56,744 nucleotides of DNA from a virus. Taxonomy: Duplodnaviria > Caudoviricetes. The position numbers and the translations under genes are program-made. Position 1 is the first letter of the stretch; the number at the start of each line of letters is the position of its first letter. The DNA lies in the IMG/VR virus record IMGVR_UViG_3300048016_000009, positions 1-56,744 of that record; one strand, 5' to 3'. The notes beneath the pieces were generated by a model. That model ran no database searches. It was not told where the DNA came from and saw nothing but the letters and a program-made list of their open reading frames with translations. This document shows, in pieces, positions 1 through 56,744 of this stretch.

Positions 1-127
1 AATTCACCTTCCTTGTACACTGGACCTTCACGCAAACGTGGAACAGCTTCAGGCAAAGATTCTTTAGCAACTGGTAACTTAGACTGCACACGATTGACAG
101 CAGCTTCAATGAAACGATCACCACTGT
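1..127. repeat. 127-bp exact terminal overlap (copy 1); circular assembly join
   Basis: Bases 1-127 (aattcaccttcc...gatcaccactgt) are identical to 56618-56744. The repeat lies inside a coding frame and its length matches a common assembler k-mer. Confidence 0.95.
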
Positions 128-2864
128 CTTCAGCCTTGATGACGTTAGGATCACGCTGAATGGAACCACCTTCACGGAACAGATCAAAGAATTCGTAAGC
201 ACTCTTAAACACAAATGGTTGTGAGAAACGAGCAGTGAAGTCACCAACAACTTTACCCAAGGCAATCTCAATCTTGTCAGCTTCTTTCTCAGATGACATA
301 GCTGCAAACACTTGATCAAGGAATTGATTCTGTGTGCCAGCAGGCATCTTCATACCGATGATGGACTCAACCATCTCAGCAGTCTTTGGTTCCAATCCCA
401 TCTTACGTTTAGCCATGAAGTCAGCAACAGCCAGTGTTGGACCCAACGGGAAGATGGCACGTGTGTCAACAGTAGAACCATCATCGTTCTTCATGTTGTA
501 CCACTCAGTGTCTTGGTTGCTCAACCGATAGTCATAGGCCGCTGCCAATGCAGCAGTACCGACAACACCTTTGGCAATGTTCTCTTGACCTTTACGAATG
601 AGAGCTTCACCACCAGAAGAACCAGTAGCTTTCAGCAATGAACCCTGTGCCAAGTCTTCAGCACCTGACATAGCACCAAAGATGCTATAGCGGTATTGGA
701 AAGCAATGGCGTTCGACATGAAGCGAGGGAATGTAGCGATCAAGCTACCACCGGGAAACTCAGCAGCTTTAACAAACAAGTTACCAGCAGCTTCTGCACC
801 AGCCTCAAAGGTTTCAATACCTTTCTTCTGCGCCTTCGGTGTGTAGGAGAATGTAGCCTTCAGTGTTTCGTCAGTGGCTTGTTGTAGGATTGATGCAGGG
901 ATTGTCTTACCTTGACCAATCACCTCATACATGTCCAAACCAGCACGGCGCATATGCTTCTCAACAGAAGCGTTGAAGATGGCTTTACGGAAGAAGGCAT
1001 CCTGTGCAACGTTCAGGGTATTGAAGATCTTTGCAGCACGAGAGATTTCGTTGGTGGAGCTTTCTTGTGTAGCGCTCAAGATGTTGTTACGCAATGCAGG
1101 ATTGTTCTGCAACAAAGTGTCTGTGACCTCAGTGGATAACCCACCCTTTGCCATGTATCCGTACACACCAAACGCATCACTCATGGTGTCACCAAGACTA
1201 CGCATAGCTGTAGTGACTCGTTGACCTTTAGCTGCACCATCCAGTGTACGACCAACGGTGTACAGAGCACCTTCAACAAGTGAAGCAGCAGAGTTGTATG
1301 TCAAACCAACAGTAGTACCCAAGACGTTACGAACTGTGGTGCCAATACCAGACACAACCCAAGCTTTAGATTCACGCTCAAGGGTGTTGACTGCTTGACC
1401 AATATAACCAAGCGCTGACACTTGACTATCTGGTTTAGCAAACAAGTCATCCACTTGCTTCTTGAATACTGGATCAATCTCTGTCAGTCGCTTCAGCACC
1501 TTAGACGCAGCAGAGTATTGCTGCATCACTTGAGCAGCCTCTGTCACCGTCATCTTGTTTGCTTTAGCAAAATCGTCTGGTGTCAAACCTTCTTTGCGAA
1601 TTGCCTGTTCCAGTACAGCATCATTGACATTGTCCAGATTGGAGAACACCTCATTGATGGCAGAGCTAGTTTGTTGGTTAGGTTTAAGACGGAATGTTGG
1701 GTCTTGTTCAATGACGTGCATCGCCACACGAACAGCACGAGCCGACATATCCTTCTGAATCTTTGAATCTGTCAAAGCTGTAGCAGGGTTCACTTCATCC
1801 AAGATGCGACGACCTTCAACCTTGATGAATTCTTCAACAACCTGATCCATGTTCTGAGTGACAGGGTCAGTCAAGATACGCTCAGTTGATGTCACTGGTG
1901 CATTAGGGTTGGTAGGTGATGCTTGTTTCTTCTTCAAGATGTCAGTGAGTTGTTCAGCGCCAGACTTACCAGCAGGAACAGCCAGTGTTCCTTTAGCTTC
2001 AGCGAATCCACCAACAGCACCAAACAAACCAGCCACAGCCATTTGACCAGCATCAAGATTGGCAGGTTGTTCACCAAGCGATTTAGCTACTTCTTGTTTC
2101 TTCTTTTGTTCAATGACGTTCTGTCCAATACCAACAAGAGCTTCAGTGCCTGTAGTGGCAGCAGTGACAGCAGCAGGTGTGGCTTTCAACAACGAAGCTG
2201 TAGCAGCCTTTGTTGCTTCTTTAGCAATCAACTTCTTACCAGCAGTGGCTACACCAAAGCCAATGTAGTTGGTCAAGTCAGTCAGTGCAGACTTTGCAAT
2301 GTCAATGTATGGTGCAGCACCGGGCTGACCGCCTTTTTCTGTAGCATCTTTAACTTGGTCAAACAAACGATTACCCAATGCCAACTTCTCACGGTCAGGC
2401 ATTGGTGAATTCTTCAGCTTGTTAAGGGCAGCAATGTTGGAGAATGTATTCCAGTCATTACCACGCAACTCAGACATGAAACCAGCAACATATTGTTCTT
2501 TGTTGTCGCCTTCTTTGTACTCTTTACCAGTGGCAACTTTGGTGTAGTCTTGAACAATCTTGAACAAGTCAGGATTGGTGTAGAGTTCTTGATAGTCAAA
2601 CTTAGGTTTGTTGCGCTCTTCAATGGCAGCAGCCTGTACCTTCTGCAACTCTGTAGCTCGCTGACGTGGTGCTGCGAATGCAGGCTTAGTCATATCGACT
2701 TCAGGTTTTGCAGACTGTGCAGCAGCCATGCGTTCAATTTGTTGTGGTGTTGGTGCTGTCTTTGTTGGTACAAGATCATCGAAAGAACCAGCAGTAGAAG
2801 GAATCAAGTCAGCAAAGGTGCTACCTCCACCCGTAGATGGAAGCAAGTCATCAAACATTCCCAT
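1..2864 (-). CDS. N-terminal part of a ~1742-aa internal virion (ejection) protein that continues across the join into 56617-54253
   Basis: ATG at 2864 abuts the stop of the upstream gene and reads MGMFDDLLPSTGGGSTFADLIP... The frame matches the 54253-56706 ORF across the join. It is missing from the ORF track, consistent with having no stop before base 1. It is the last and largest late gene. Confidence 0.8.
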   Translation of the reverse strand, partial: MGMFDDLLPSTGGGSTFADLIPSTAGSFDDLVPTKTAPTPQQIERMAAAQSAKPEVDMTKPAFAAPRQRATELQKVQAAAIEERNKPKFDYQELYTNPDLFKIVQDYTKVATGKEYKEGDNKEQYVAGFMSELRGNDWNTFSNIAALNKLKNSPMPDREKLALGNRLFDQVKDATEKGGQPGAAPYIDIAKSALTDLTNYIGFGVATAGKKLIAKEATKAATASLLKATPAAVTAATTGTEALVGIGQNVIEQKKKQEVAKSLGEQPANLDAGQMAVAGLFGAVGGFAEAKGTLAVPAGKSGAEQLTDILKKKQASPTNPNAPVTSTERILTDPVTQNMDQVVEEFIKVEGRRILDEVNPATALTDSKIQKDMSARAVRVAMHVIEQDPTFRLKPNQQTSSAINEVFSNLDNVNDAVLEQAIRKEGLTPDDFAKANKMTVTEAAQVMQQYSAASKVLKRLTEIDPVFKKQVDDLFAKPDSQVSALGYIGQAVNTLERESKAWVVSGIGTTVRNVLGTTVGLTYNSAASLVEGALYTVGRTLDGAAKGQRVTTAMRSLGDTMSDAFGVYGYMAKGGLSTEVTDTLLQNNPALRNNILSATQESSTNEISRAAKIFNTLNVAQDAFFRKAIFNASVEKHMRRAGLDMYEVIGQGKTIPASILQQATDETLKATFSYTPKAQKKGIETFEAGAEAAGNLFVKAAEFPGGSLIATFPRFMSNAIAFQYRYSIFGAMSGAEDLAQGSLLKATGSSGGEALIRKGQENIAKGVVGTAALAAAYDYRLSNQDTEWYNMKNDDGSTVDTRAIFPLGPTLAVADFMAKRKMGLEPKTAEMVESIIGMKMPAGTQNQFLDQVFAAMSSEKEADKIEIALGKVVGDFTARFSQPFVFKSAYEFFDLFREGGSIQRDPNVIKAEDSGDRFIEAAVNRVQSKLPVAKESLPEAVPRLREGPVYKEGE

Positions 2865-4214
2865 TTAAAACTCCTGACCAGTTTGTTCTTTATAACGTTT
2901 AGCAACGGCAGCGCGATCAGCACCTTTAGCAATAGCAGCTTCAGCTTCTTTACGAAGGTTTGTTGTAGGTGTAGGTACTGTAGGTCGTGCAGCAGGTTGT
3001 GGTGTAGCAGCACCGTCTGTCTTAACAACAGAAGGAACAGCAGATGTGAATGAATTTATCACCGATGCGACATCGCGGTTAAGCGGTTGACCCTTATCGT
3101 CTGTGTAGAGCGACAATGCGTTCTTGGCAGCATTGGCTTGTGTCTCCAAGATTTGACGACGAAGAGCTTGATCATCACCAACATAGTCAATACCAACACT
3201 ACCGTCAGGTTTCTCGATGATGGCAAGTTGCTTAGTCTTGATCAAGTCACCATGCTTAGCAGTGACAGCACGTGCAACAGATGCAGAAGCAAAGGTGTTC
3301 AATGTACCCAGTGCAGGAATCTTACCTTCACCAGCACCTTCACCAGTCTTCTTAGCCATTGCTTCAGTACGAATGTCTGCCATCAACTTATCATATTCAG
3401 GCTTAGCAGCCTTGCGTGTTTCGGCATCACCAAACATATAGCGATTCTTAATGTCAGCAATCTTGTTTGCAAACTCAGTCTGCAATGGTGACATTTCAGC
3501 TTTAGCTTTGGTGAAGTATTTCAACTCAGTCTTTGCAGCATCAATCTTAGTCTCATCACCACTTCGCAGAGCATCGACAAGTTGAACTTGAGCTTTCTCT
3601 GTTTGTTGGTTCAAAGTCTTTGGTGGCTCCAATTTAGTCATATCAAAGGTAGCACCTGTGTTGGTACGCTGAGTACGTGATGTAGCCTGCAAGTCTGCCA
3701 TAGACATACCTTGCGACTTAGCCAACCTACCCATTGTAGAGTCGTATGATGTTTCACCGAAGTCACTGATAAGGCCACCAAGAGGACTACGGTTCTTAGG
3801 AGTTTCAACCTTGGACGACATAGACTCTTTAATCTTACCAACCAAAGAAGGCAATGCTTGAATGCGCTCAGCCTGCACAGCAGGAGATTCATTACCTTGT
3901 GCAATCTGAATATAGTTGTTGAGGTCAATCTTATATGGGTCGTCAGTCTTCTTCAAAGCCTCAAGCGCTACAGGGTTGCCTACCAATGCAGCGACCTGTT
4001 CAGGTGTTGCGCTTGCATAGTTTGTCTTGACCCACAACTTGTCTTCGTCCATCTTGCTAGTGAGTTCACGATTGGCTTTAGAGTTTTCTTCATAACGCTT
4101 ATACAAAGCGCTGAAACCAAGCTTAGCATCTTCACGTGCATTTTGCTCAGCTTGTTCAATGTCGGTAGTAAGTTGTTTAGCAGCACCACCAAGAAAGGAA
4201 AGGACCATACCCAT
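2865..4214 (-). CDS. putative internal virion protein (449 aa)
   Basis: Helical Ala/Lys/Gln-rich ORF with an N-terminal LSFLGGAA, coupled to its neighbours, in the ejection-protein position. Confidence 0.55.
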   Translation of the reverse strand: MGMVLSFLGGAAKQLTTDIEQAEQNAREDAKLGFSALYKRYEENSKANRELTSKMDEDKLWVKTNYASATPEQVAALVGNPVALEALKKTDDPYKIDLNNYIQIAQGNESPAVQAERIQALPSLVGKIKESMSSKVETPKNRSPLGGLISDFGETSYDSTMGRLAKSQGMSMADLQATSRTQRTNTGATFDMTKLEPPKTLNQQTEKAQVQLVDALRSGDETKIDAAKTELKYFTKAKAEMSPLQTEFANKIADIKNRYMFGDAETRKAAKPEYDKLMADIRTEAMAKKTGEGAGEGKIPALGTLNTFASASVARAVTAKHGDLIKTKQLAIIEKPDGSVGIDYVGDDQALRRQILETQANAAKNALSLYTDDKGQPLNRDVASVINSFTSAVPSVVKTDGAATPQPAARPTVPTPTTNLRKEAEAAIAKGADRAAVAKRYKEQTGQEF

Positions 4215-4720
4215 TACATCACCTCTTTCTGTTTACGTGCCATCAAACCAGCAGGCTCTTTAGGCATTACTTCTTTTGTTGTTGTATCTTCTTTGACAGG
4301 GGCATTCATCTTATTAACAAACTCACGCATTAGACGAGGTGGAATGGTTGTGCCTGCTTCAAGATCTTTCTGAAACATTACAACTTTAATGTCATTGAAG
4401 TCTGCAATGCTTTTCAACACTTCCATAATGACAGGCATAACCAAGATACCAGCATCAATAGTATGACGACCCTCAGAGACATGAGCAAGCATGAACGATT
4501 CAGCAATGGTCGCAACAGGCACACCAGTCTCTAACGCATCAAGAATATCGTTAGCTACTTCAGCTTGAGCAAGCGCCATTATGTAGCTCTTAGCTACTGT
4601 TGTTACATTAACCTGAGCAGGTGGATTCAACCAAGGACGGCTCTTAGGTGGTGCAGTCCATGAAATACCCGGTGCTGCGGATGTAAACATTTCACCAACT
4701 GTTGATTCACTTTCTAGCAT
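4214..4720 (-). CDS. hypothetical late protein (168 aa)
   Basis: Overlapping start/stop with neighbours; ends in GLMARKQKEVM. Confidence 0.6.
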   Translation of the reverse strand: MLESESTVGEMFTSAAPGISWTAPPKSRPWLNPPAQVNVTTVAKSYIMALAQAEVANDILDALETGVPVATIAESFMLAHVSEGRHTIDAGILVMPVIMEVLKSIADFNDIKVVMFQKDLEAGTTIPPRLMREFVNKMNAPVKEDTTTKEVMPKEPAGLMARKQKEVM

Positions 4721-4931: not shown

Positions 4932-6980
4932 TCAAGGTGTGGTTAATTTATCCCAAGCATCACTGACAGCAGTCCAGACCTTATCACTTTCCAACACTTT
5001 TACAACAGCACCACCAATGGCAGCAGTAGATGCGGCCTTAGCAGTATTGGATGATGCAGTCACTGTAGCATTAGAAGTGAGAGTGGCTTTAACAATCTCT
5101 GTAGCCCTGTCCTTCACAGCTTCACCAGTCTTCCATGATTGTTCAAGCAAGTCACGATAGGTTTGGCTTTGTTGTGCATATGTAGAAGCAGCTAAGTCTG
5201 TAGCATTCTTTGCATTAACAGCATTGGCTGCATTGGTAGCAGCAGTGTTTGCTACAGAAACTTCAGCTAAGATTTTAGCATTAGCCAAGTTGATCTGTGT
5301 AGTCATGTTGGCGTTAAACTCTTCACGCTGCTGAGCCTGCTGAGCATTGAACTTACCAATCTCGTTAGCTGCCAAAGCGTTAGTCATGTTAACTTTATTC
5401 AACTGATCAGCATTAAACTGCTGAGCAGACTGCATCAACGTAGAAGACACCTTAGCTGCATCCAAAGCATTAGCGGCGTTAGTGATGGCTGTAGCATTAG
5501 CAAAACCTGCATCACTCACCAGAGCATCACTCATCTCTTGTGCTCGGAACAACATAGTTTGTTGCTTATTATCCAAGTTCTTAATGTCCATCATCAAGAA
5601 AGCTTTAGCATTCTCAACAGCCACCTGCTGACGATTGTTCAGGTTGGCTGTCTCAAGCTGAGACATCTGTGCCATCTTACCCAACACAACAGCATTCTTA
5701 GCTGACAAATTGGCGATGTCCATTGATCCAGCAAGCCTGCTATTTTCAATAACAATCTGTGTCTGTGCATCAAAGTTCTTGTTAGCAATGTCAGCAACCT
5801 TTGCAGCGTTCAACACACGAGTTTGAAACGCTTGATCAAAGTCTTGACCCAAGAAAGCAGCACGTTGTTGACCAACAAGAATGGCAGTCTGCTGACGGTT
5901 AGACAGGTTCTGCAAACCCATTGTCTCAAACACCTTAGCATCAGCAGCAGCGATGGGTGTAGCAGCCTCTAGCGTGGCTTGAATGATAGCTTGACCAGCC
6001 ATGCTACTAGCACCAATACCACGTGCTGCCATCTGTGCATTAGCTGCCCTCATTGAAGCTGCCGCCCAAGGTGGTGGAGTGCCAGCATCGAAGTTGGTCA
6101 ACAGCTTATTGAGTTGACCCTGTACAGTCATGTCATCTGTTACAGTGCCTTGTGCTGCCTGTGTCTTAGCAAGAGTATCTTCAACCTTCGCCATATCAAC
6201 AGCACTGCCCGATACCATCTCACCTTCCTGCACAGTACGTGTAGGAGCATTCTGTACAGTACTAGCAACACCTTGTGCGGCCTGTGTATTAGCAACAGCG
6301 GTAGTTGTTGGTTCTTGTGTAGCAGCTACAGCTTTAGCAGCGTCAGATACAACACCTTGTTGCGCGTCTACATTAGTTAGAATGTCAGAAACACCCTTAG
6401 ACGAAGATGCAGCAGTTGCGGTAGGAGCAGTAATAACTGTCGGCATTCCAATACCGACTGGTGTTGCGACATTGGTTACAGTGGCTTTATCCGTTACACC
6501 AGCCTGACCCGCCGTTGCATTCGTTGGTGTTGCTGTCTGTGCAGCAGTATAAGATGAAGCACCGGGAATAGTAGGGGCACCAACGGTTGTATCGGTTGTA
6601 GCAGCTTTGGTAGTAACACCCTTAGCTGCATCATAACGTGCCTGAACTTCATTACCGCTAAGTCCGTAACCTCGTGCAATCTGATCAACACTCAAACCAA
6701 GTTCATCCATCTTTGCAGCAACCTGCTTATCGGACATACCTTGATTGGCTGCAATATAGTTTTTAATTTCTTCATCAGAAATAGCAGCACCGCCTGCTGC
6801 AAACTTCCTAACCATACCGCCCTTAGCCATACGCTCTGCAAACTTAGAAGTAATGGCAGAATACTTCTGTGCATCAGAAGGTGATGCAGACAAGAACTCG
6901 TCAAACATTTGCATAGGACCATCATAGCCCATCTTACGTGCGACGATTTCTTTTTGTTTTGATGTAAAGCTTTCAGCCAT
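4932..6980 (-). CDS. putative internal virion / DNA ejection protein (682 aa)
   Basis: Ala/Gln/Asn-rich, with NLSNRQQ / NLNNRQQ / QFNA repeats typical of podovirus pilot proteins; tandem MAKGG-FAAGG near the N-terminus. Confidence 0.6.
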   Translation of the reverse strand: MAESFTSKQKEIVARKMGYDGPMQMFDEFLSASPSDAQKYSAITSKFAERMAKGGMVRKFAAGGAAISDEEIKNYIAANQGMSDKQVAAKMDELGLSVDQIARGYGLSGNEVQARYDAAKGVTTKAATTDTTVGAPTIPGASSYTAAQTATPTNATAGQAGVTDKATVTNVATPVGIGMPTVITAPTATAASSSKGVSDILTNVDAQQGVVSDAAKAVAATQEPTTTAVANTQAAQGVASTVQNAPTRTVQEGEMVSGSAVDMAKVEDTLAKTQAAQGTVTDDMTVQGQLNKLLTNFDAGTPPPWAAASMRAANAQMAARGIGASSMAGQAIIQATLEAATPIAAADAKVFETMGLQNLSNRQQTAILVGQQRAAFLGQDFDQAFQTRVLNAAKVADIANKNFDAQTQIVIENSRLAGSMDIANLSAKNAVVLGKMAQMSQLETANLNNRQQVAVENAKAFLMMDIKNLDNKQQTMLFRAQEMSDALVSDAGFANATAITNAANALDAAKVSSTLMQSAQQFNADQLNKVNMTNALAANEIGKFNAQQAQQREEFNANMTTQINLANAKILAEVSVANTAATNAANAVNAKNATDLAASTYAQQSQTYRDLLEQSWKTGEAVKDRATEIVKATLTSNATVTASSNTAKAASTAAIGGAVVKVLESDKVWTAVSDAWDKLTTP

Positions 6981-9559: not shown

Positions 9560-10417
9560 TTAGTACTCCACAATTACAAAACCGCGACCCATCGTACCAG
9601 CAGCAGTATTTGCACTACCACCACCCGGAAAACCCCCACCACCACAATAGGCGTTGGAATAAGCCCCGCCCCCACCACCGCCGTTAGAGCCATTACCGGC
9701 ACAGCCTACGTTGGGTGTGGACCCACCACCTCCACCAGTTCCAATAAAATCCAAACCAGCAACAGTGCCAATTGCACCATTTAGTTGACTCATAGTCACA
9801 CCCGTTCCGGTTTGTACAACAGGTGCCCCTCCGCTTCCGGTAAAACCGCTGCCACCGCTACCGCCGAAGGGTGTGCCCCCGTTAATTCCGGCTCCACCAC
9901 CAGCGCCACCGGGAGCAGAAAACCCGTTATAAGTTGTGCTTGAGCCACCCCGCCCGCCGTCTCCAAACATTGAAGCTGCACCCCCGCCGCCGCAACCCAT
10001 GTTGGTGTTACCGTACGTGCCGCCGTTGCCGCCGGTCGTGTTGATGTCGCCCCCAGAGCCGGTGCCTCCGTTGCCAGAGTTATAAGCGCCCGCACCTCCG
10101 CCACCAGTTGCAGAACAATAAGCGCCGAAGCTGGAGGTGGCGGAGCCGCTGGTGCCGACTGTCACAGCCACGGTTCCACCGGGTGTTAGGCCAGTAATGG
10201 TTTTCATCGAAAAACCGGCACCACCCCCAGCCAACATGCCGCCATACGCCCCGTTAGCGCCAATACCACCAGAACCCCATACCCGCACACGGACGGCACT
10301 GACCCCCGCTGGCACAGTAAAGGTGCCGCTTGCTGTAAAGAACTGGACCCGACCGGTGCCGAATACACCAGTAAAAGGATTCAGGTTTGTACTCGAATAT
10401 GTTGAAATATTACTCAT
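9560..10417 (-). CDS. glycine-rich tail fibre / adhesin protein
   Basis: FTASGTFTVPAGVSAVRVRVWGSGG start, polyglycine repeats, GFVIVEY end. Confidence 0.75.
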   Translation of the reverse strand: MSNISTYSSTNLNPFTGVFGTGRVQFFTASGTFTVPAGVSAVRVRVWGSGGIGANGAYGGMLAGGGAGFSMKTITGLTPGGTVAVTVGTSGSATSSFGAYCSATGGGGAGAYNSGNGGTGSGGDINTTGGNGGTYGNTNMGCGGGGAASMFGDGGRGGSSTTYNGFSAPGGAGGGAGINGGTPFGGSGGSGFTGSGGAPVVQTGTGVTMSQLNGAIGTVAGLDFIGTGGGGGSTPNVGCAGNGSNGGGGGGAYSNAYCGGGGFPGGGSANTAAGTMGRGFVIVEY

Positions 10418-17818: not shown

Positions 17819-19327
17819 TTAGTTTCGCTTACTAACAAAACCACCTTTAGCTAACAAAGCCCTATCACCAATGTAAGGAATATATCGTCCTTCAGCATTC
17901 TGCTTCATGTGATAACCCTTAATAGGTGCATCCTTGTAAATATCATCTTGATTTAGATTCAGAGTAGATGTATTAGCGGTAGTTGTTCGACTACCTAAAC
18001 CACCACCTACAGTAAGATCATTTGATTTAGTTGTTGTTGTAGCAAGCCCTGTTAGAACACCAGCCTTCACAGCATCAGCACCTGACATACCAGTAAATAC
18101 TTTCGATGCAGCATCACCAACTGTTGAAAGTAAGCTACCATCACTGACAGTCTTAGTGAGTGAGCCTTCATTTGCAGTGGCATCAAATGCATTAGCATTG
18201 TCACTTGCATTTGTAATACTATCTTCGATAGCTGACATAGCATCTGGACCCATTGCTCCTTGCATGAACCCATCATATGCACCATTAGAACCAAAAGCTG
18301 GATCTAAACCAGCAGCAAGATCTTCATCCGAGGCTTTCTTAAGTCCTTTAATATCTTTACTATTACTCAGGTAACCCGTAACAGCACCAGCAACCATTGC
18401 ATCTGTAACGTCTTGACCACGAAGACTAGCAGCGACACCACTGACTACCGATGTACCGATAGTCGATGCCATATCACCTGTAAGCCCCACACTCTCACCA
18501 GCCATCGTACCCACACCACCACTAATGGCAGCAGTTACAGGATCACGACCTGTGACAACAGCGCCAGCAACTTTACCTGCTATGTTTGCACCAGCTTGTC
18601 CAAGCATATCAACGACTGATTCAGTACCAGATACTGCACCAGAAACTTGTCCACCAACATAAGTGAGAGCAGCAGATTTAATAATATCACCAATGTCTTT
18701 ACCCTGAGCAGCCTGCAATGCAGCGGTGCCCAAGGGCCCACCATAAAACGCAGCAGCAACGTTGGCAGCAATAGCAAGTAGCTTATTGTCACCGATCATG
18801 TTTACAAGACTGTTACTACTAGCTGCGGTAGTATAAAAGATTGGTTGTCCTGTTGAGAAATCAACACGGTATCCGGTGTTGCCTTTACCAGCAAATGTAC
18901 CACCCCATGCGTTTTCAGTTTGACGCTCGGCATATGTATTTGGAACAACTTGACCCGTTACTGTATTACCAAAAGCTTTCTGTCCTGTATCAAAAACAGG
19001 TTCACCATTTTTAATAATTACCTTCGACTGATCTGCAATAGGAACAAAGACTTCTACATAGCCACCATCTTCACCACTACCTTGCCACTCAGCCTGCATA
19101 GTTCCATAAACTTGCTTGCCGTCCTCACCAGTTCTGGCTTCTGCTTTTGCGTATTGCGAAACATTACCAAACTGTTTAATGTCAGTGATACCAATACCAT
19201 CAAGAATCTTAGCCATATCATCAGCATTAGCTTTAGCTGAACCATGACCTTGACCCTGCCATTTATCTGAGATCCCTTGACCTAAGATTTGCTGAGACAG
19301 CTTGCTTATATTAGAAGCATCTGCCAT
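17819..19327 (-). CDS. putative virion/internal protein, Gly/Ala-rich (502 aa)
   Basis: Glycine-zipper-like middle region; C-terminal LLAKGGFVSKRN; between portal and scaffold. Confidence 0.55.
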   Translation of the reverse strand: MADASNISKLSQQILGQGISDKWQGQGHGSAKANADDMAKILDGIGITDIKQFGNVSQYAKAEARTGEDGKQVYGTMQAEWQGSGEDGGYVEVFVPIADQSKVIIKNGEPVFDTGQKAFGNTVTGQVVPNTYAERQTENAWGGTFAGKGNTGYRVDFSTGQPIFYTTAASSNSLVNMIGDNKLLAIAANVAAAFYGGPLGTAALQAAQGKDIGDIIKSAALTYVGGQVSGAVSGTESVVDMLGQAGANIAGKVAGAVVTGRDPVTAAISGGVGTMAGESVGLTGDMASTIGTSVVSGVAASLRGQDVTDAMVAGAVTGYLSNSKDIKGLKKASDEDLAAGLDPAFGSNGAYDGFMQGAMGPDAMSAIEDSITNASDNANAFDATANEGSLTKTVSDGSLLSTVGDAASKVFTGMSGADAVKAGVLTGLATTTTKSNDLTVGGGLGSRTTTANTSTLNLNQDDIYKDAPIKGYHMKQNAEGRYIPYIGDRALLAKGGFVSKRN

Positions 19328-19330
19328 GTC

Positions 19331-19696
19331 TTACTCCATCTCACCCATAAGAGAATCAATCTCAGAAGAGAACATCTCATCATCCATTTCTTCACCACCG
19401 AACAAAGCTTCACCGTTAGGTACTTCTTCGGCATTACCCATCTGACCAATATCATTCATCTTCTGAAGACCAGTCTTAGCCTTATCACGCAGCTTCATCA
19501 ATGTTTGCAAACCAATGAATCTGACTACATCAGCGGGAAAGACAAACTCGCCCTCACTAAGCTGTGCAGGAATATCATCACGTACTTCTTCTTTCATAGC
19601 ACCAACAGGAACTTCATTGCCGGAAACAGGATCGACTGTTCCACCGTCCTGCATCATGCCACCTTCGGCAAATAGTTTATTCATTTCAGCCTGCAT
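19331..19696 (-). CDS. small protein with a FAEGG...DDIPAQLSEGEFV motif
   Basis: Motif resembles the FAxGG...DSIPAxLSxGEFV segment of tape-measure C-termini; acidic tail. Confidence 0.6.
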   Translation of the reverse strand: MQAEMNKLFAEGGMMQDGGTVDPVSGNEVPVGAMKEEVRDDIPAQLSEGEFVFPADVVRFIGLQTLMKLRDKAKTGLQKMNDIGQMGNAEEVPNGEALFGGEEMDDEMFSSEIDSLMGEME

Positions 19697-19898
19697 GATT
19701 GATCTCATCTTTCAAATACTTTAGCTGCCGTAATGCAGCAATGGCACCTTGTGCCTTAAACACTTCATTCAAATCTGTAGCCTGTTCCAACTTGCGTTGG
19801 TGTTGCTCAATGTCGTAGTCAAGTTTCTCAACAAAGGCATCCCACATATGAGGACTGTTGAGCATACCCTTGAGTTTTGGCAGAAAAGGTTTGCTCAT
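19686..19898 (-). CDS. conserved-looking small protein after the portal (70 aa)
   Basis: Helical, with a ..AQGAIAALRQLK.LK pattern; coupled overlaps. Confidence 0.6.
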   Translation of the reverse strand: MSKPFLPKLKGMLNSPHMWDAFVEKLDYDIEQHQRKLEQATDLNEVFKAQGAIAALRQLKYLKDEINHAG

Positions 19899-20437
19899 TG
19901 AATCATATCCTCGTAAAATTTGTTGTTCTTAATATTGTTTTCAAAACTTGTCAACACTTGCAGATTCCAAGGAACATGTAATCCACTAACGTTCTTACCC
20001 AATAAAGGCACGATGTGGTCTACTTGGTAACTAATACCAGTAATCGCGCTAAGTTTTTTTGCTTCCTCATAGATGTTTGATATAGACCGCTTGTCTTCTT
20101 CAGTGAGCCATGCAGGAAAACGCTTCAGTCGTTTTGCTCTTTTATTTGCATCCCATACCGAATGCTTGAGTGGTTCAGCTTTTCTGTAGTGTCTTTTGTA
20201 TAGAATTACTTGTTCAGCATTCTCGCCTCTCCACTCTCTACATCTCTCTATTAAGAAGTCTTTGTTTTTCTCTCTATACACTTTGTTGTACTCAGAGATA
20301 CTAGCCTTCTTAGACTGCCTATACAATGTTACACATTCTTTACAAGCAGAATTAAGGCCGTCCTTACTTGCTTTTCTCTGAGCAAAGTGAAACAACTCCT
20401 TTTGAGAGTTGCATCTTGTACATGTCTTAATCATCAT
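19895..20437 (-). CDS. HNH homing endonuclease
   Basis: CxxC...CKEC zinc finger and VDHIVPL.G..VSGLHVPWNLQVL...N; AT-richer than its flanks. Confidence 0.85.
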   Translation of the reverse strand: MMIKTCTRCNSQKELFHFAQRKASKDGLNSACKECVTLYRQSKKASISEYNKVYREKNKDFLIERCREWRGENAEQVILYKRHYRKAEPLKHSVWDANKRAKRLKRFPAWLTEEDKRSISNIYEEAKKLSAITGISYQVDHIVPLLGKNVSGLHVPWNLQVLTSFENNIKNNKFYEDMIQ

Positions 20438-24785: not shown

Positions 24786-25132
24786 TAGAAAAGTCCTTGT
24801 TCGTAATATTCTTCAACAGTGACAGTTGTAGACATAGTGCTACCAGCTTCTGGAGTGACTACAAGATGATCACCGGGATTGAGGACAAGGTAGCTACCAT
24901 CAAGTTTTATATAACCATTAGCAGATAAGACATAACCACCTACAATGTAGTATGCTCCACCTGCACTGACATCATGCCATTGAATAGATATATTTTTATT
25001 ATTGCCTCCATGATTGGAAACAAATAACAAATTCATCTTAGCAATGAAGTTGTCAGGACAGGTGTAGATAGTGTTGGCAACCCCTGCTGTCAAGTTCAAA
25101 CCAACACTACGAATCTTTGGTTCTTTGTTCAT
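24785..25132 (-). CDS. hypothetical beta-sandwich protein (115 aa)
   Basis: TIYTCP...LVLNPGDHL pattern seen in small phage virion proteins. Confidence 0.5.
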   Translation of the reverse strand: MNKEPKIRSVGLNLTAGVANTIYTCPDNFIAKMNLLFVSNHGGNNKNISIQWHDVSAGGAYYIVGGYVLSANGYIKLDGSYLVLNPGDHLVVTPEAGSTMSTTVTVEEYYEQGLF

Positions 25133-25287
25133 TTCTTCTTAGGCTTCACTTTAGCTTCAGACAAACTGATGGCAATGGCTTGCTTAGGGTTTTTAACAAC
25201 AGGGCCACCTTTACCACTATGAAGAGTTCCTTCTTTGAACTCTCCCATCACCTTAGCCACTTTAGCTGTTTGTTTCTTTGTAGCCAT
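25129..25287 (-). CDS. small basic protein (52 aa, DUF6496-like)
   Basis: KVAKVMGEFKEGTLHSG...V.NPKQAIAISLSEA; SD GAGGA upstream. Confidence 0.65.
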   Translation of the reverse strand: MATKKQTAKVAKVMGEFKEGTLHSGKGGPVVKNPKQAIAISLSEAKVKPKKK

Positions 25288-25288
25288 A

Positions 25289-25693
25289 TCAGTCCTCTTC
25301 TTTCTCATACTCTTTACATTCCCACGCTGTACAGCTACGTAGGTTGTGACAGATGAATTCAAACTTGTGGCAATATCCACGACCACCAGCACCAGTGTCA
25401 AATGCATTGCGTGGAATGGTATCCATAGCCAACATCATCTCTGGAGTGTTTTCAAAGTATTCACAGTTGGCACAGCGCTGGCGACGAGCTTCCTCTTCGC
25501 TAAGCTTCCATGTCGCTGCCATGTCTTCCCAATAGGGCTTGTTGTTATCAGGCTCGTCAGAAGGGTCTTTCTCAGGACCAAGCTTCCAAAACTTGATAGT
25601 GTGCTCAGTGTTGGTTTTATTCTCTTCAGGGGTAACAATGAGATACTCTTCGTCTTCAATCTCAATTACCGGAGTCATCAATCCCTTAGCCAT
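25289..25693 (-). CDS. Cys-rich protein with a HiPIP-like motif
   Basis: QRCANCEYF...GYCHKF...SCTAW. Confidence 0.55.
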   Translation of the reverse strand: MAKGLMTPVIEIEDEEYLIVTPEENKTNTEHTIKFWKLGPEKDPSDEPDNNKPYWEDMAATWKLSEEEARRQRCANCEYFENTPEMMLAMDTIPRNAFDTGAGGRGYCHKFEFICHNLRSCTAWECKEYEKEED

Positions 25694-26125: not shown

Positions 26126-26389
26126 TTACTTTTTAGCCTTCTTAGCAACAGAACCGCCCTTAGCCATCATTGGCTTCTTCATAGGCATCTTGTCTGCTGT
26201 CTTCATTGGAGCCTTCTTAGCCATACCACCCTTAGCCAGCTTCAGACCTGTTGTCTTCTCAACAGAACGTCCTTCAATTTCATTGGCCTTCTTGTCAGCC
26301 ATATCACGCACCTCTTGAGGCAATGTCTTATCCATTGCTTGCTTACGCAGTTCTGTAACCTTCTGTGCTTCTGTCTTAGTCGTTGCCAT
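26126..26389 (-). CDS. small Lys/Met-rich protein with two AKGG motifs
   Basis: SD AAGGA; KLAKGGMAKK and MMAKGGSVAKK. Confidence 0.6.
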   Translation of the reverse strand: MATTKTEAQKVTELRKQAMDKTLPQEVRDMADKKANEIEGRSVEKTTGLKLAKGGMAKKAPMKTADKMPMKKPMMAKGGSVAKKAKK

Positions 26390-30010: not shown

Positions 30011-30226
30011 ATGTATACAACCCGTAGAGGCGGCTTTGACCGTGAAGATGCACGTTTGCACTATGAGCAATTACAGCGTGACAGATACGTTCTCACCCTT
30101 ACCACCAGCAAAGGCGAGACAGCGATACTCACATACGACACAATGGCACAGGCTGTAGCGATGCGTCAAGCATTCATGAACACTGGCGATTATTGTGATG
30201 CAACTGTGAAGGATAAACTATGCTAA
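30011..30226 (+). CDS. early hypothetical protein
   Basis: SD AGGA; overlaps the next gene. Confidence 0.6.
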   Translation: MYTTRRGGFDREDARLHYEQLQRDRYVLTLTTSKGETAILTYDTMAQAVAMRQAFMNTGDYCDATVKDKLC

Positions 30227-30609
30227 AAGTATATGTATACTTTAATCTGCACCGTAAATGCTTCAGCATCAAAGCGCTTGAGGGTAAAGACAAGGGCCGT
30301 GTCGTGGCACACAGTGACAAGGTGTTGATCTATGATGGCACGTTCAAGGTGTCAGAGGCAGGCCGTCAACGTGTCCTTCGTGAACGTAAAAAGAATGTAC
30401 ATGCTGGTGTTGTCGGTCAATGGGTCGGTAGCCTTGACGATGAGTTGACAATTGAGCGCATCGTTTACAACGGTACACCTGTGACATACAACCCATACAA
30501 GTATGACAGTTTCGTTCACTTGTACGGTATGCATCCAATTGAGACAGGCCGCTTAGTGGCACTGACTGTTAGCGAAAACAAACGTTCTCACATCAACGTC
30601 TGGAATTGA
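30220..30609 (+). CDS. conserved phage hypothetical protein
   Basis: VYFNLHRKCFS...F.VSEAGRQRVLRE.KKNVHA pattern; SD AAGGA. Confidence 0.7.
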   Translation: MLKVYVYFNLHRKCFSIKALEGKDKGRVVAHSDKVLIYDGTFKVSEAGRQRVLRERKKNVHAGVVGQWVGSLDDELTIERIVYNGTPVTYNPYKYDSFVHLYGMHPIETGRLVALTVSENKRSHINVWN

Positions 30610-33807: not shown

Positions 33808-33882
33808 GTTACGTTAGCTCAGCGGTAGAGCAGGCAGCTCATAATTGCTCGGTCATCGGTTCGATCCCGGTACGTAACACCA
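33808..33882 (+). tRNA. tRNA with CAT anticodon (Ile2-like; elongator Met not excluded)
   Basis: Acceptor GTTACGT/ACGTAAC, D arm GCTC/GAGC, loop CTCATAA, TTCGA T loop, encoded CCA; paired 1-72, so not an initiator. Confidence 0.85.
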
Positions 33883-33923: not shown

Positions 33924-34754
33924 ATGTTAATGAATCAAAACAACGCTATCGGTATGTTCATGGGTCTATTCATTGGTGATGCACTCGGTGCGCCATTGGA
34001 ATTTACTGAGCCTAACACTGGCAACCCACTCAAGGACATGGTTGGTGGCGGTGTTCATGAGACAAGCCCCGGTGAATGGACAGACGATGGTGCTATGTCA
34101 ATGGCTATCGCTGATGCCTACCTCACATACAAACGCTTTGCCCCCGGCATCATTGCACAGAACCTCAAGCAGTGGCGTAACCGTGGTACGTTTGGTACTC
34201 GTGACTATTGCTTTGACATCGGCACTACCACAGCCGAGGCGCTGTCTGCATCATCTAACAAGCGTCCTTATGGTGGCTCTTGTGCATTGATGACAGACGG
34301 TAATGGTGGCATCATGCGAATGGCTCCACACATCCTGTTCAACCACAACAACAAGACGATGGCAATTGCTGAGTCTGTTGCTGGTGGACTCATCACTCAC
34401 GGTACTGGTAAGTGTGTTGCCTACAGTGCTGCACTGGCTGAAGAGTTGTTCGATGGTGCTCGACATGGCAACCAAACCCTATTCGACAAAGGCATCAAGG
34501 AAGAGAGTGGCACTGTGATGGGGTGCTATGCATCGGCATGGCAGTCTGTATGTGCAACAGAGTCCTTCGAAGACGCTGTTGTCCATGCCATCAACAAAGG
34601 TGGTGACGCTGATACAGTTGGTGCTGTGACAGGTATGATTGCTGGTCGTTTGTATGGCTACGACAGCATTCCTCAGCGCTGGATTGATGCACTGGTTGAC
34701 CACGACAAGTTGTTGGCGACAGCAACTATGCTTTACAACATGGGGAACACATGA
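33924..34754 (+). CDS. ADP-ribosylglycohydrolase (DraG/ARH family)
   Basis: GDALGAP.E, GEWTDD, GNGG.MR..P, TH, GGDADT. Confidence 0.92.
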   Translation: MLMNQNNAIGMFMGLFIGDALGAPLEFTEPNTGNPLKDMVGGGVHETSPGEWTDDGAMSMAIADAYLTYKRFAPGIIAQNLKQWRNRGTFGTRDYCFDIGTTTAEALSASSNKRPYGGSCALMTDGNGGIMRMAPHILFNHNNKTMAIAESVAGGLITHGTGKCVAYSAALAEELFDGARHGNQTLFDKGIKEESGTVMGCYASAWQSVCATESFEDAVVHAINKGGDADTVGAVTGMIAGRLYGYDSIPQRWIDALVDHDKLLATATMLYNMGNT

Positions 34755-35905: not shown

Positions 35906-36135
35906 ATATTGTCATTTATTCCAAAAGCGGCTGCCCAAATTGTTTGACAGCCAAGCGGCTGCTGAACAGCAAGGGGATTGGGTACACCGAGGCTGATGTC
36001 GTCTTGTCGGAAAATGCAGTATCGCTTTTCACCAAGTACCCTGAAGCCCGTCAGCTTCCCCAAATCTTCATCAACGGTCAGCGTGTCGGTGGCTTGGCTG
36101 GACTGCAAGCAGCATTGAAGGAGTTGGGACTATGA
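35902..36135 (+). CDS. glutaredoxin
   Basis: IYSK.GCPNC...LPQIFING..VGG. Confidence 0.9.
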   Translation: MNIVIYSKSGCPNCLTAKRLLNSKGIGYTEADVVLSENAVSLFTKYPEARQLPQIFINGQRVGGLAGLQAALKELGL

Positions 36136-45482: not shown

Positions 45483-45784
45483 CTGTAATCTTGCGACCAG
45501 TTATCAACGCAGACGAGAAGTGGGACGGTGACTTTGAACTGATGGTGTGTGCTGTTGGTCCAGTTACATTGAATGAAGAAGACATGCAAGACATGCTTGC
45601 TGTCGCAACATTGATGGCAACAACTGTTCCGTTGATGGAAGAAGACAAAGCCTTTGCAAAGAAGATCATGGATAAGTGTGATGAGATTTATGCAGACGGT
45701 GGTATTGATCTTGGTGATGCAACCGTTGTTGATGACACACATGTGCTGACTCAGTACAGTAAAACCGTTGGAGGTATGCAATGA
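45452..45784 (+). CDS. hypothetical acidic protein
   Basis: SD AAGGA; coupled to the next gene. Confidence 0.55.
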   Translation: MDKPFKPNDVAVILRPVINADEKWDGDFELMVCAVGPVTLNEEDMQDMLAVATLMATTVPLMEEDKAFAKKIMDKCDEIYADGGIDLGDATVVDDTHVLTQYSKTVGGMQ

Positions 45785-46224: not shown

Positions 46225-46549
46225 AGCTGAGATTGATGTTGAAGACTTGGGTGCTGAGTATTCCAACGAAGACTACCTTGTTTACACTGTCAAAGGCACG
46301 GTCATCTATGCCATGAGTAGGCTTGATGCAGACATTACATTCAACAGGGTTGATGTGGAAGGACTAGAATGAAGATAACAATCACTGATGCTGAGAACGG
46401 TTTTGTTGTAGCGGTAGAGGAAAGTGAAGACAGTTTCTTCTATTTCGTAGCACTTGACATTGAAGATGTTTGTTCTATTGTGCAGAACATCTTGGTTGAA
46501 CCAGCCGATGTGTTGGACATGACCAACATAGCCTTTGAAGCGGTGCGTA

Positions 46550-53937: not shown

Positions 53938-54012
53938 TCCAAAGTAGCACAGCGGTAGTGCAGCAGACTGTTAATCTGTTGGTCGTAGGTTCGATCCCTA
54001 CCTTTGGAGCCA
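53938..54012 (+). tRNA. tRNA-Asn(GTT)
   Basis: Acceptor TCCAAAG/CTTTGGA, loop CTGTTAA, TTCGA, G73, encoded CCA. Confidence 0.92.
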
Positions 54013-54252: not shown

Positions 54253-56744
54253 CTATTGCCGACGACTTGCAAGACCACCCTTCGCCAGCTTTGGCACAAA
54301 CTTCCTCACCTCATCCAATGGTTTGACTCGTTTGCTTTCGTCAACCGCTGTAGAGATTGCAGGTTCCGACTGTTGAAACTTCTTCAACTTGTCGCTGAGT
54401 TCATACAGATTCTGTGCTTTCTGTTTTGCTCCACCATCCCACAAAATATCACCGACCTCCCGCATCTGACGTTGAATACCTGAGTAGTCTGCAAAGAAGT
54501 TGATAGCAGCTTGATACTGCTGACCAAGACCAGACTTCGTAGATGTTGCCGATGCCATGTCCAGATAACTATTCATCAAGTCTTTGATGCCAGTGTAGGA
54601 CATGTATGCCAGCTTCATCTTCTCTTTAGGGTTTGGATTGGTACGAGCAAGCTTCATGTACTCCGATATAACTTCCTCTTCACCCTTCATTGTTGCTCGA
54701 CTCAGCCCTTTGCCACCAGTCTCCAGCACTTGAGCAACATCCTTTTCACCACTACGCAACTTAGCGTTAGCACCCTTGACGCGAAGCTTCTCAGCCTCCA
54801 ACATCATGTCTTCAGTTTCTAAGAAGCCAGCGCGAGGCAGACCAATAGGACGAACAACACCGGGTGCGCCAGTGACAGCGCGAAGGATTGTGTTCAAGTC
54901 TTTGTTGTCATACTTCTCAGGGGCCATGTTGATTTTGTTGAACACATAATCAGCATAAGGAATCTCTGTAACAACATAGTTCTCTGGTCTTGTTCCACCA
55001 AACGGTGTGCCTCGGAAGCCAAGGTTCAGGTCTTTAGTGAACGATGGAGCACCCACCATCATTTCAGAATGGAAGAATTCGTCACGCTTGGATGGGTCTG
55101 TGAAGCCTGACTTCTTCAGTGTATCCACATCTTCAGTAACACCTTGACCGTGGAATAGCTTCACAGGTGGTACATCCTTGTACTTCTCACGCAAAACATC
55201 AAGACGTTTCTGATACTGAGTAGCCAGCTTCATAGCGTCAGCAAGCATCTCAGGGTCTTTAGGGTTGAGTTCAACACCACGTGAGTAGCGATAGTCACCC
55301 AACACCACACCCAAGACATCATCATCTACTGAAGCAAACTTGTCGTTGTTACGCATCTTAAAGAAGCTGTCTTCGCGTGTCTCTTTAATGGCAGCAACTG
55401 CGGCATTACGTTGAGAAACACTGGTCTTCTTAGCGATAGAGTTGGCATCACCAGACAAATACTTAGGGTCTACACCGTACTCGTCAGCAACTGGTTCAGC
55501 TTTCTTGACAACAGCTTTGCCACCAACACTGACAGGATTACCGTCAATGTCATATTCAACTTCATCCACCAAAGACTCAGCAGCTTCGTCAGTCTTCTTG
55601 GCAAAAGGCTGTGGTGGCATCTCAGAAAACTTCAGCCCTTTAGCTTGACCAGTGAAGCTGTGCAGGGTATTCTCATAGTCTTCAGGGTTGGCAACCTTCC
55701 AACTCTTCAACTGTGCAGGCGTATACATCTCCAGCATAGCCTCTTCACCCATGATGTAGTCTTCATCAGCAAAGGCTTTAGAGGGCGTAGGAGCCTCTAT
55801 TGTCTTTGCCGCAGGGGTAGGTAGGGCTTCATCCATTTGATTCAACACAGGCGCTTCTGGTGGCTTTGCTGCCATTTCAGGAAGCATAGGCGTTGGCTTT
55901 GCTGTAGCTTTAGGAAGCATAGGCTTCTTCATCAACATGTTTGCAGTCTGATCCATCGCTGGAGATGTTGTTGTCTCAGACAATCGCTTGTTGATGATGT
56001 CGTCAATGGCGACAGTCTCAACTGGCGCAGCACTCTTCAATCGTTTAGCTGTGTCCAATACAGACTCAGCAGCACCACCAACAATCTTCTTACCAACAAC
56101 TTTAGCTGCTGCCAATCCACCAAGGGCGTATGTAGAAACAAGACCACCTTTAGCGAATGCCAAGTTACCCAACATGGCGTTGTACTTGTCAACAGCTTTG
56201 TAGTCTTTGGCCTCTTCCAAAGTTACACCATTGTTGTCTTTGGCATAACGTTCGTTGATGACCTTACGCTGATCCTGTGACAGCTTATCAAACTGCATCT
56301 TCTTAACACGAAGAATGTCTTCAGACATGAATTTACCATCTGTCTTGTCACGAGCAATACCTGTAACGTCACGCACAACGTTTGTCAATGCAAGCTTCTG
56401 TTCTGTTGGAGACAATGCTTGATAGCGTTTGTTAGCGGTGGTGCGCTCAATAGCGTTAATAACCATTGGATTAGCAGCTTCAACAAAGGCACGATCATAC
56501 AAACGATCACCCGATGATGGGCCATACAGTTTGAATGGATCAATGCCGAGTCGAACAATCTCTTTCTCAGCAGGAGTCTTTGCTGGTGTCTCACGCACAC
56601 CGACCAAGCTGTAAAAGAATTCACCTTCCTTGTACACTGGACCTTCACGCAAACGTGGAACAGCTTCAGGCAAAGATTCTTTAGCAACTGGTAACTTAGA
56701 CTGCACACGATTGACAGCAGCTTCAATGAAACGATCACCACTGT
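54253..56744 (-). CDS. C-terminal part of the ~1742-aa internal virion protein (starts at 2864)
   Basis: The 817-aa ORF is in frame with 1-2864 across the join; contains FAKGG/YALGG, an ART-like segment and terminal LAKGGLASRRQ. Confidence 0.8.
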   Translation of the reverse strand, partial: SGDRFIEAAVNRVQSKLPVAKESLPEAVPRLREGPVYKEGEFFYSLVGVRETPAKTPAEKEIVRLGIDPFKLYGPSSGDRLYDRAFVEAANPMVINAIERTTANKRYQALSPTEQKLALTNVVRDVTGIARDKTDGKFMSEDILRVKKMQFDKLSQDQRKVINERYAKDNNGVTLEEAKDYKAVDKYNAMLGNLAFAKGGLVSTYALGGLAAAKVVGKKIVGGAAESVLDTAKRLKSAAPVETVAIDDIINKRLSETTTSPAMDQTANMLMKKPMLPKATAKPTPMLPEMAAKPPEAPVLNQMDEALPTPAAKTIEAPTPSKAFADEDYIMGEEAMLEMYTPAQLKSWKVANPEDYENTLHSFTGQAKGLKFSEMPPQPFAKKTDEAAESLVDEVEYDIDGNPVSVGGKAVVKKAEPVADEYGVDPKYLSGDANSIAKKTSVSQRNAAVAAIKETREDSFFKMRNNDKFASVDDDVLGVVLGDYRYSRGVELNPKDPEMLADAMKLATQYQKRLDVLREKYKDVPPVKLFHGQGVTEDVDTLKKSGFTDPSKRDEFFHSEMMVGAPSFTKDLNLGFRGTPFGGTRPENYVVTEIPYADYVFNKINMAPEKYDNKDLNTILRAVTGAPGVVRPIGLPRAGFLETEDMMLEAEKLRVKGANAKLRSGEKDVAQVLETGGKGLSRATMKGEEEVISEYMKLARTNPNPKEKMKLAYMSYTGIKDLMNSYLDMASATSTKSGLGQQYQAAINFFADYSGIQRQMREVGDILWDGGAKQKAQNLYELSDKLKKFQQSEPAISTAVDESKRVKPLDEVRKFVPKLAKGGLASRRQ
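56618..56744. repeat. 127-bp exact terminal overlap (copy 2)
   Basis: Identical to bases 1-127. Confidence 0.95.

Follow-up and report, generated by a model that had tools for sequence, protein, structure and literature searches.

The window analysed here, a stretch of 56,744 bases listed as a complete virus record (IMGVR_UViG_3300048016_000009), is a complete HMO-2011-type podovirus genome in which otherwise unrelated late proteins have in common a hydrophobic-Ala-x-Gly-Gly motif. An original prediction, made from the sequence alone, had taken the motif for a portable peptide at the termini and domain boundaries of unrelated late proteins, and this description is borne out by its enrichment, by an independent matrix and by its positions in homologues. 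In a protein encoded next to the portal gene, the motif flanks a conserved module that, on the evidence of profile comparisons, is homologous to an element that lacks annotation and lies close to the C-terminal end of siphophage tape measure proteins, lambda gpH (~733–790) included. The reading that we tentatively place first is that the motif marks boundaries and maturation-cleavage sites in proteins that exit by way of the tail channel. We call such proteins pilot proteins, meaning those that would sit in or behind the exit channel and exit the virion before or with the DNA.

Motif copies and their enrichment

A six-frame scan of the window for [MLFYIV]A.GG gave 13 matches, 11 of them in frame in minus-strand late genes. 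All the copies on which the original prediction was based were recovered in place (9/9). The scan added a tenth, absent from that list, at residue 571 of a giant protein, and the eleventh late match, MLAGGGAGF (10220–10234), falls in a tail-fibre-like protein rich in Gly and seems fortuitous. A direct terminal repeat of 127 bp stands at the two ends of the window (1–127 and 56618–56744), so that the real genome is a 56,617-bp circle or a permuted linear molecule, and the giant reading frame therefore joins 2864..1 to 56617..54253 (1742 aa). The carrier genes, and the copies located in them by the scan, are as follows.

4932..6980, minus strand: 682-aa protein, homologue of HMO-2011 gp25 by tblastn, putative internal virion or ejection protein
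6816–6830, minus strand: MAKGG, residue 51 of the 682-aa protein
6789–6803, minus strand: FAAGG, residue 60 of the 682-aa protein
17819..19327, minus strand: 502-aa protein, C-terminal half of the portal-adjacent protein; in relatives a single chain holds 'LYRDAPIKGFEMV...', the tail and the module
17822..17854 (motif 17840–17854), minus strand: LAKGGFVSKRN and stop, tail at the extreme C-terminus of the 502-aa protein
19331..19708, minus strand: 125-aa protein, anchor-module half of the portal-adjacent, polyvalent-like protein, fused in relatives
19658..19672, minus strand: FAEGG(MM), residue 13 of the 125-aa protein (in the alignment G16 is invariant and G17 at least 90% conserved)
26129..26239 (motifs 26225–26239 and 26153–26167), minus strand: LAKGGMAKK and MAKGGSVAKKAKK, the latter followed by the stop, in a 101-aa lysine-rich protein
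1..2864, minus strand: giant protein gene, 5' part, joined across the record ends
54253..56617, minus strand: giant protein gene, 3' part, joined across the record ends
1140..1154, minus strand: YMAKGGLST, residue 571 of the giant protein (the tenth copy)
56116..56157 (FAKGG 56143–56157, YALGG 56116–56130), minus strand: FAKGGLVST-YALGGLAA, residues 1109–1124 of the giant protein
54256..54288 (motif 54274–54288), minus strand: LAKGGLASRRQ and stop, C-terminal tail of the giant protein

Copies stand at residues 13, 51/60, 571 and 1109/1118 and at three extreme C-termini, and three window proteins end in the motif plus Lys/Arg. By comparison with relatives, in which they are fused, the 125-aa and 502-aa genes are one portal-adjacent protein split in two; the carriers therefore make up four independent families and not the five first proposed. 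That they are unrelated held up, since similarity beyond the motif was confined to low-complexity matches (best E 0.003, 5-sequence database). From their size and their place after the tail genes, as in T7-like phages, we infer that the 682-aa protein, a 449-aa protein and the giant are internal or ejection proteins.

The count of copies far exceeds what the composition of the late proteins yields. Set against 5000 rounds of shuffling within each late protein, [MLFY]A.GG was observed 11 times (shuffle mean 1.45, maximum 7) and [MLFY]A[KE]GG 8 times (mean 0.12, maximum 3), and 0/5000 shuffles reached the observed count for either pattern. In the early proteome (7790 aa), where the original prediction had seen no copy, there were 0 strict matches and 1 loose one (YADGG, 45689–45703). 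Because the pattern had been defined after seeing the data, we built an independent test, a 9-position matrix for which the portal-adjacent protein supplied the C-terminal tails of its metagenomic homologues (60 distinct ones), and scanned the other window proteins with it. This gave 5 matches at 12 bits or more (two in the giant, one in the 682-aa protein and two in the 101-aa protein), where 0.014 were expected and 0/500 shuffles reached 5; applied to all six frames of the window, the matrix matched in these late reading frames only. An unbiased 4-mer scan ranked AKGG third, and 75/300 shuffles held some equally extreme 4-mer, which speaks against an enrichment drawn from the bare 4-mer. The tetrapeptide is therefore insufficient by itself, and the argument rests on the extended motif and its conservation. 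Synonymous codons vary among the copies, and selection has therefore acted on the peptide, not on a DNA repeat; this variation rules out a DNA-level repeat or recombination linker.

Conserved positions and the anchor module

In the 682-aa protein, the tandem MAKGGMVRK-FAAGGAA (6789..6830, residues 51–66) closes a conserved N-terminal leader of ~50 aa. The family has 205 homologues at E≤0.001. Among the best 120 of these 205, which we inspected, a MAKGG-type sequence lies near residue 50 in 120/120, and a second strict copy follows 8–15 residues on in 94/120, a count that would rise if Asp or Asn were allowed after the Gly-Gly. In an alignment of 73 sequences, M51, G54 and G55 are invariant and A52, G63 and G64 at least 90% conserved, and the sequence immediately past the second copy is hypervariable. 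Judged by this alignment, the family looks like one with a conserved N-terminal leader that ends in the motif. No Pfam or PHROG family was found for the 682-aa protein, and tblastn retrieved 21 phage records that align only from about residue 200 onward. Co-folding of the 125-aa module protein with leader residues 1–110 gave scores of 0.16 and 0.17 against a mark of 0.32, a result that counts neither way on binding. As a separate observation, a second small module, GDTMLAHITPEEAxLLKxxGGxGTINPxTGL, stands after hydrophobic-A-x-G-G at residues ~60–100 of the 682-aa family members P0358–P0365, and also after a motif copy at residues ~144–200 of the tape measure protein of siphophage DSL-LC04 (L006); its sequence suggests that it may be a further shared pilot-protein element.

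The tandem copy of the giant protein (residues 1109–1124) marks the boundary between its N-terminal part and a C-terminal 612-aa unit. A boundary FAKGG, FAAGG or FAVGG is kept in 13/13 homologues that extend upstream, and a KLAKGGLASRR-type tail is kept in 30/32 homologues of the C-terminal 612 residues, down to 29–33% identity. AF2 models the unit as ~100 disordered residues past the boundary, a folded unit and a disordered tail of low pLDDT (overall pLDDT 65.4), and in this model the tail is probably exposed. For the fold of the unit, Foldseek gave no match at E≤0.001, VIA-align gave generic helical-bundle matches only (Z≤9.7), and a weak ART-PolyVal lead from ESM Atlas (score 0.77) was not confirmed by fold searches. 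Stand-alone versions of the unit start ~10–20 residues upstream of the boundary motif in MAFFT alignments; on this ground we rejected a gene fission in exact register at the hydrophobic residue of the motif, and retain proximity only.

The third family is that of the portal-adjacent protein, which is encoded between the portal and scaffold genes and contains the module.

19448..19588, minus strand: conserved module EVRDDIPAQLSEGEFVFPADVVRFIGL...AKxGL, residues 41–87 of the 125-aa protein, found in 3020 representative clusters (E≤0.001)

The 125-aa protein matches 7543 longer proteins and is joined in relatives to N-terminal cargo and/or C-terminal parts. Their chain begins with optional cargo, FAKGGxV, xEMNKLFAEGGVMQEGG and the module (DDIPAQLSEGEFVFPADVV...AKxGL), and continues after the module with an acidic stretch, YAAGGxV(RKYAPGGYV), a middle region, a Gly/Ser/Ala-rich stretch and a tail that reads [FLWYM]AKGG[FL]VSK[RK]K...KGLASRRK up to the stop. 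This C-terminal tail is present in 96/120 of the closest homologues and in 52/138 further representatives, many of them contig fragments; throughout the family, conserved tails stand behind long, variable, disordered Gly/Ser-rich linkers. The motif is thus kept in three independent families, and the conservation expected of a functional peptide was found along with the enrichment.

The module itself is without a Pfam, NCBIfam or PDB match in sequence and profile searches, and an AF2 monomer of the 125-aa protein (36 sequences) is non-globular, with a pLDDT of 64.6. A module that is highly conserved yet non-globular alone suggests folding on a partner. The cargo to which it is joined is varied: Pfam cargo was assigned in 10/62 representatives (E≤1e-4, some below the curated cut-off), comprising ART-PolyVal, tail lysozyme with LysM, methyltransferase and L5 gp82-like domains, and relatives carry these as single cargo domains, plus one borderline LPD23 match, in a virion-gene context. 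Two early genes of the window touch on this cargo. A free-standing L5 gp82-like gene lies at 30220–30609 (plus strand), and the same domain is the N-terminal cargo in P0184, P0193 and P0237; it may move between early-expressed and virion-delivered forms. An ADP-ribosylglycohydrolase gene (33924–34754, plus strand, Pfam E 1e-48) lies in the early region of a phage whose portal-adjacent relatives carry ART-PolyVal cargo.

Looser variants of the motif, GLMARK, KGLLSP and MAKGLMTP, had also been proposed and are present in the window, the first of them as follows.

4232..4252, minus strand: AGLMARK, looser variant near the C-terminus of the 168-aa protein (4214–4720), from the sequence

GLMARRK is conserved at the C-terminus of HMO-2011 gp24 (L003), which ends TGLMARRK at the stop. 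The element xGLMAR[KR]K, common to the 168-aa protein and gp24, resembles the final KGLASRRK of the portal-adjacent family and, going by this likeness, may be a one-glycine variant of the tail motif. Of named phages, those nearest to the window phage are MW202701, an uncultured podovirus with 76% identity across the portal gene, and two Roseobacter phages of the HMO-2011 type, CRP-345 and CRP-603. MW202701 has small proteins ending MAKGGMAKKGC at the stop, and HMO-2011 keeps MAKGGMIRKMQTGG in gp25, FDEGG and MQVGG in gp49 and LKKGGAV in a small protein. A small basic protein of the window (25129–25407, minus strand) has a DUF6496 domain (E 4e-11) and contains SGKGGPVVKN; it probably starts at an internal Met just past the stop of the 25289–25693 gene.

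The module, of the type [ST]D[SD]IPAxLSxGE[FY]V, matches tape-measure PHROGs (four families at E 5e-5 to 0.03), and hhalign of the podoviral module against four tape-measure regions gives a probability of 91.6% (E 8e-7, 32 columns). Representative P0205, which carries tandem module versions, the second of them divergent (GPGTETSDDIPAMLSDGEFVMTAKAV), retrieved 197 phage records by tblastn; among the 60 matches listed, 15 belong to HMO-2011-type phages or pelagiphages and the rest are almost all annotated tape measure proteins, from Arthrobacter, Burkholderia, Gordonia, Pseudomonas, Vibrio, Streptomyces, Rhodococcus and Mycobacterium phages. Pelagiphage HTVC103P has a tape-measure-like version of the module in its portal-adjacent protein, with MATGG at residue 10. 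We inspected ten tape measure proteins, hand-picked from the 197 records for host diversity and not at random, and in 9/10 a hydrophobic-A/x-x-G-G copy lies no more than ~50 residues from the module and often flanks it on either side, as in the Nitrincola protein (FATGGYV...SDSIPAWLSNGEFVI...FSTGGYV) and the Arthrobacter protein (FAVGGAI...SDDILALLSNGEHVL...FATGGAA); that of Mycobacterium phage Lemuria has a degenerate FAGG only. The tape-measure element falls outside Pfam and NCBIfam models, and in the Burkholderia protein it lies downstream of Tape_meas_lam_C.

Two well-studied tape measure proteins bear directly on function. Lambda gpH reads FHFATGGFTGTGGKYEPAGIVHRGEFVFTKEATSRIGVGNLYRLMRGYATGGYVG at residues 731–786 and ends QMRDGGLFSGGGR at the stop. 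It is processed to gpH* and gpHC, the exact site and enzyme being called unknown in a 2025 structural paper. Residues ~690–817 are unresolved and residues 818–849 form a trimer bound to the hub protein gpI (PMC12617516); the PDB entries with a gpH chain are 8IYK, 8IYL, 8K35 and 9E7M. A cut between F733 and A734 would yield 79.8 and 12.5 kDa, sizes compatible with the approximate published one. T5 pb2 is cut after R1127; the 92-residue pb2C, which stays at the tip of the tail, is believed to leave first (PMC10038345, main text). Translated, pb2 reads ...NSFVPR/AEGGMMYPGVS... (the slash marks the cut), so that pb2C begins at residue 1128 with AEGGMM, identical to residues 14–19 of the window 125-aa protein. 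A.GG[hydrophobic] occurs once in the 1219 residues of pb2, and the chance that motif and cut coincide in exact register is roughly 1 in 1200. Cleavage has been proposed as general among the tape measure proteins of different phage groups (PMC11972413), a proposal on which the motif bears.

Readings of the motif

Four points put the cleavage reading in the lead: the motif coincides with the T5 cut, it lies at boundaries, the 682-aa family has an N-terminus that looks like a leader, and genes are split at motifs. The window 125/502 split and the stand-alone versions of the giant C-terminal unit coincide with motif sites or lie near them. Hydrophobic-Ala-x-Gly-Gly-hydrophobic would act as a delimiter in pilot proteins, closing the 682-aa leader, parting the structural portion of the giant from its C-terminal unit, bracketing the IPAxLSxGEFV anchor module in the portal-adjacent protein and opening the short basic C-terminal tails. 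By analogy with T5 pb2, precursors would be cut between the hydrophobic residue and Ala during virion assembly, which would free tails, leaders and units of cargo; the agent could be a protease of the host or self-cleavage triggered by assembly. Cutting in this phage, its timing and its enzyme are points that we infer only by this analogy. The original prediction had offered two functions, prohead loading and maturation cleavage. The second gains from a motif that starts T5 pb2C exactly at the R1127 cut, and the first loses from a motif and module that are standard in tape measure proteins.

A number of observations weigh against cleavage and keep our preference for it tentative. The literature search found no virion proteomics for HMO-2011-type phages. 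Pfam and PHROG scans of the late and early proteins found no protease gene except an M15 endolysin, a negative that leaves room for a host enzyme or for a divergent phage enzyme among several large window proteins that have no assignable fold; lambda and T5 present the same gap. The strict AKGG form is frequent only in the window and MW202701, and neither HMO-2011 nor CRP-603 has a matrix match of at least 10 bits, looser variants occurring there. The third lambda copy, MRDGGLF (842–848), lacks the Ala and lies inside the gpI-bound 818–849 chain; since that chain is resolved, the copy at M842 is uncut. The T5 link is a match of 6–10 residues in which the P1 residue is Arg and not hydrophobic, and the C-terminal 120 residues of pb2 score 0.07% and 0.5% by hhalign against the module profiles, so that the short motif alone matches. 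Trimming 10 residues from a C-terminus has no obvious purpose. An analogy with the assembly cut of T4 gp5, presumably at S351/A352, was dropped, there being no A-x-G-G near that site.

Docking is the main rival of cleavage, and we regard it as possible but less likely. The motif and its basic tail would bind a partner in the portal-adaptor-nozzle lumen or plug and position pilot proteins to exit first, uncut. The resolved trimer of lambda gpH on gpI, MRDGGLF included, is what docking would look like (PMC12617516), and three window proteins do end in the motif plus Lys/Arg. Long disordered linkers precede the tails of the portal-adjacent family, as would suit a tethered binding peptide, the giant tail is of low pLDDT, and the module region is highly conserved but non-globular alone. 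This phage, however, has no gpI homologue; docking also accommodates less well the internal, N-terminal and tandem copies (the latter 9 residues apart), and it leaves the T5 cut at the motif unexplained. If docking were true, the motif would still show which protein ends sit in the exit channel.

A wider form of the cleavage reading is that hydrophobic/A-x-G-G is a general maturation-cleavage signal of tailed-phage conduit proteins, both the tape measure proteins of long-tailed and the ejection proteins of short-tailed phages, one that is cut on assembly without a dedicated phage protease and possibly through self-cleavage that needs the GEFV module in an oligomer. We think this unlikely. Were it true, it would place the cut from lambda gpH to gpH* between F733 and A734 and give processing sites for thousands of marine phage pilot proteins.

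A post-ejection role appears doubtful to us. Here the motif would be a flexible Gly-Gly hinge, or make membrane or wall contact, and so aid passage through the channel and refolding into a trans-envelope conduit. It is common to tape measure proteins and podoviral internal proteins, both of which are ejected and thought to build conduits (PMC8954989 and PMC12617516), and it occurs in phages of Gram-negative and Gram-positive hosts. A hinge alone, however, would need neither an invariant hydrophobic-Ala nor conserved residues past the Gly-Gly.

Capsid or scaffold targeting, in which the peptide would bind the inner surface of the coat, the scaffold or the portal in the procapsid and load cargo, is somewhat less probable again. 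The carriers are late proteins without other similarity, the motif stands at termini past flexible linkers, the conserved N-terminal leader of the 682-aa family closes with it, and variable cargo is fused to a conserved anchor whose gene adjoins the portal gene. All this fits targeting, but the element of motif and module is typical of tape measure proteins, which are assembled in tails apart from heads. Since heads never contain tape measure proteins, the case for pure capsid targeting is weakened, though the free-standing copies may still serve it.

Cleavage after Gly-Gly by a ubiquitin-like-specific or adenain-like protease, the register that had been proposed by analogy with adenovirus and ASFV, is very improbable. 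In its favour, the sequence is like hydrophobic-x-G-G sites, a JAB/MPN domain, of an enzyme class that cuts after GG, is part of lambda tail assembly protein K, and a 'tail tip assembly protein K' gene lies near the Burkholderia tape measure gene. T5 pb2, however, is cut before Ala, two residues upstream of the GG and not past it, and the window has no JAB, CE-clan or C39 peptidase matches. An origin of the motif by chance or through the composition of proteins rich in Gly, Ala and Lys, for which only the non-significance of the bare AKGG 4-mer speaks, is refuted by the shuffle tests and by positional conservation in homologues.

Genomic setting and comparison with known systems

The minus strand from ~27,200 down to 1, and then from 56,617 to 54,253, holds the morphogenetic genes, in three parts.

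Minus strand, part 1: small and large terminase; SU10-type portal; HNH/endonuclease VII gene; 125-aa and 502-aa proteins
Minus strand, part 2: scaffold-like protein; coat protein; SU10-type adaptor; tubular tail B; fibres; lysis genes
Minus strand, part 3: 682-, 71-, 168- and 449-aa proteins; 1742-aa giant across the record ends

The plus-strand block at 28,000–54,000 holds replication and nucleotide-metabolism genes. No tape measure gene was found in the window, whose portal and adaptor are SU10-type and which has tubular tail proteins. The HNH/endonuclease VII-like gene (19895–20437, minus strand) lies between the genes for the portal and the portal-adjacent protein, and a second HNH gene lies at 46535–46933 (plus strand); both may be homing-type insertions. 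Genes for tRNA-Met, tRNA-Asn and tRNA-Trp are at 33808–33882, 53938–54012 and 54018–54093 (plus strand). A tyrosine-integrase gene at 36132–37220 suggests a temperate lifestyle.

Phage proteins that accompany the DNA are hard to annotate, and their sorting, cutting and positioning are mostly unknown. The motif and module are easily scanned; they mark pilot proteins in a very abundant aquatic phage group and tie them to tape measure proteins, and the motif offers a concrete candidate for the lambda gpH cleavage site. We found the motif described in none of the papers searched, and work on lambda H or T5 pb2 published by subscription only may contain data that bear on it. The proteomics paper on RIO-1, an unrelated podovirus, does not report processing.

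Several known systems resemble this one in part. The T4 capsid-targeting sequence, which directs proteins to the scaffolding core, is strictly N-terminal and is removed by the prohead protease gp21 through a cut after Glu. Like the motif, it is a short portable peptide that occurs on unrelated proteins inside the virion and is used or removed in assembly; in contrast, the window copies are N-terminal, internal and C-terminal, their sequence is unrelated, and tail proteins also carry the motif. Scans of the late and early window proteins showed no prohead protease gene. The adenovirus protease cuts core proteins at (M/I/L)XGG-X, and the likeness lies in hydrophobic-x-Gly-Gly sites in several internal proteins, small basic ones included. 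The window differs in that all strict copies have the hydrophobic residue at –5 and Ala at –4 from the bond past the GG; a CE-clan cysteine protease had no Pfam or PHROG match in the window, where several large proteins are without an assignable fold. Encapsulin cargo-loading peptides bind an HK97-fold shell and are, as here, short Gly-containing hydrophobic/basic C-terminal peptides past a flexible linker on varied cargo; their consensus is different, and since tail proteins also carry the motif, a receptor in the shell is less likely here.

Polyvalent proteins (Iyer et al., 2017; PMC5512222) resemble the portal-adjacent relatives in their variable enzymatic cargo, ART-PolyVal included. They differ in their anchor, that of the portal-adjacent protein not being MuF, and family scans found no zincin-like peptidase domain; the window's own carrier proteins are without a Pfam domain. 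We found no description of the motif or module in that paper, and its main text lacks the word 'glycine'. The maturation of T5 and lambda tape measure proteins offers both a homologous IPAxLSxGEFV-type module, in lambda gpH and many others, and flanking hydrophobic-A-x-G-G copies. T5 pb2C has no homology to the module, unlike lambda gpH, and the window phage is a podovirus without a tape measure protein, in which the element is instead part of a portal-adjacent protein and free copies of the motif are carried by other internal proteins.

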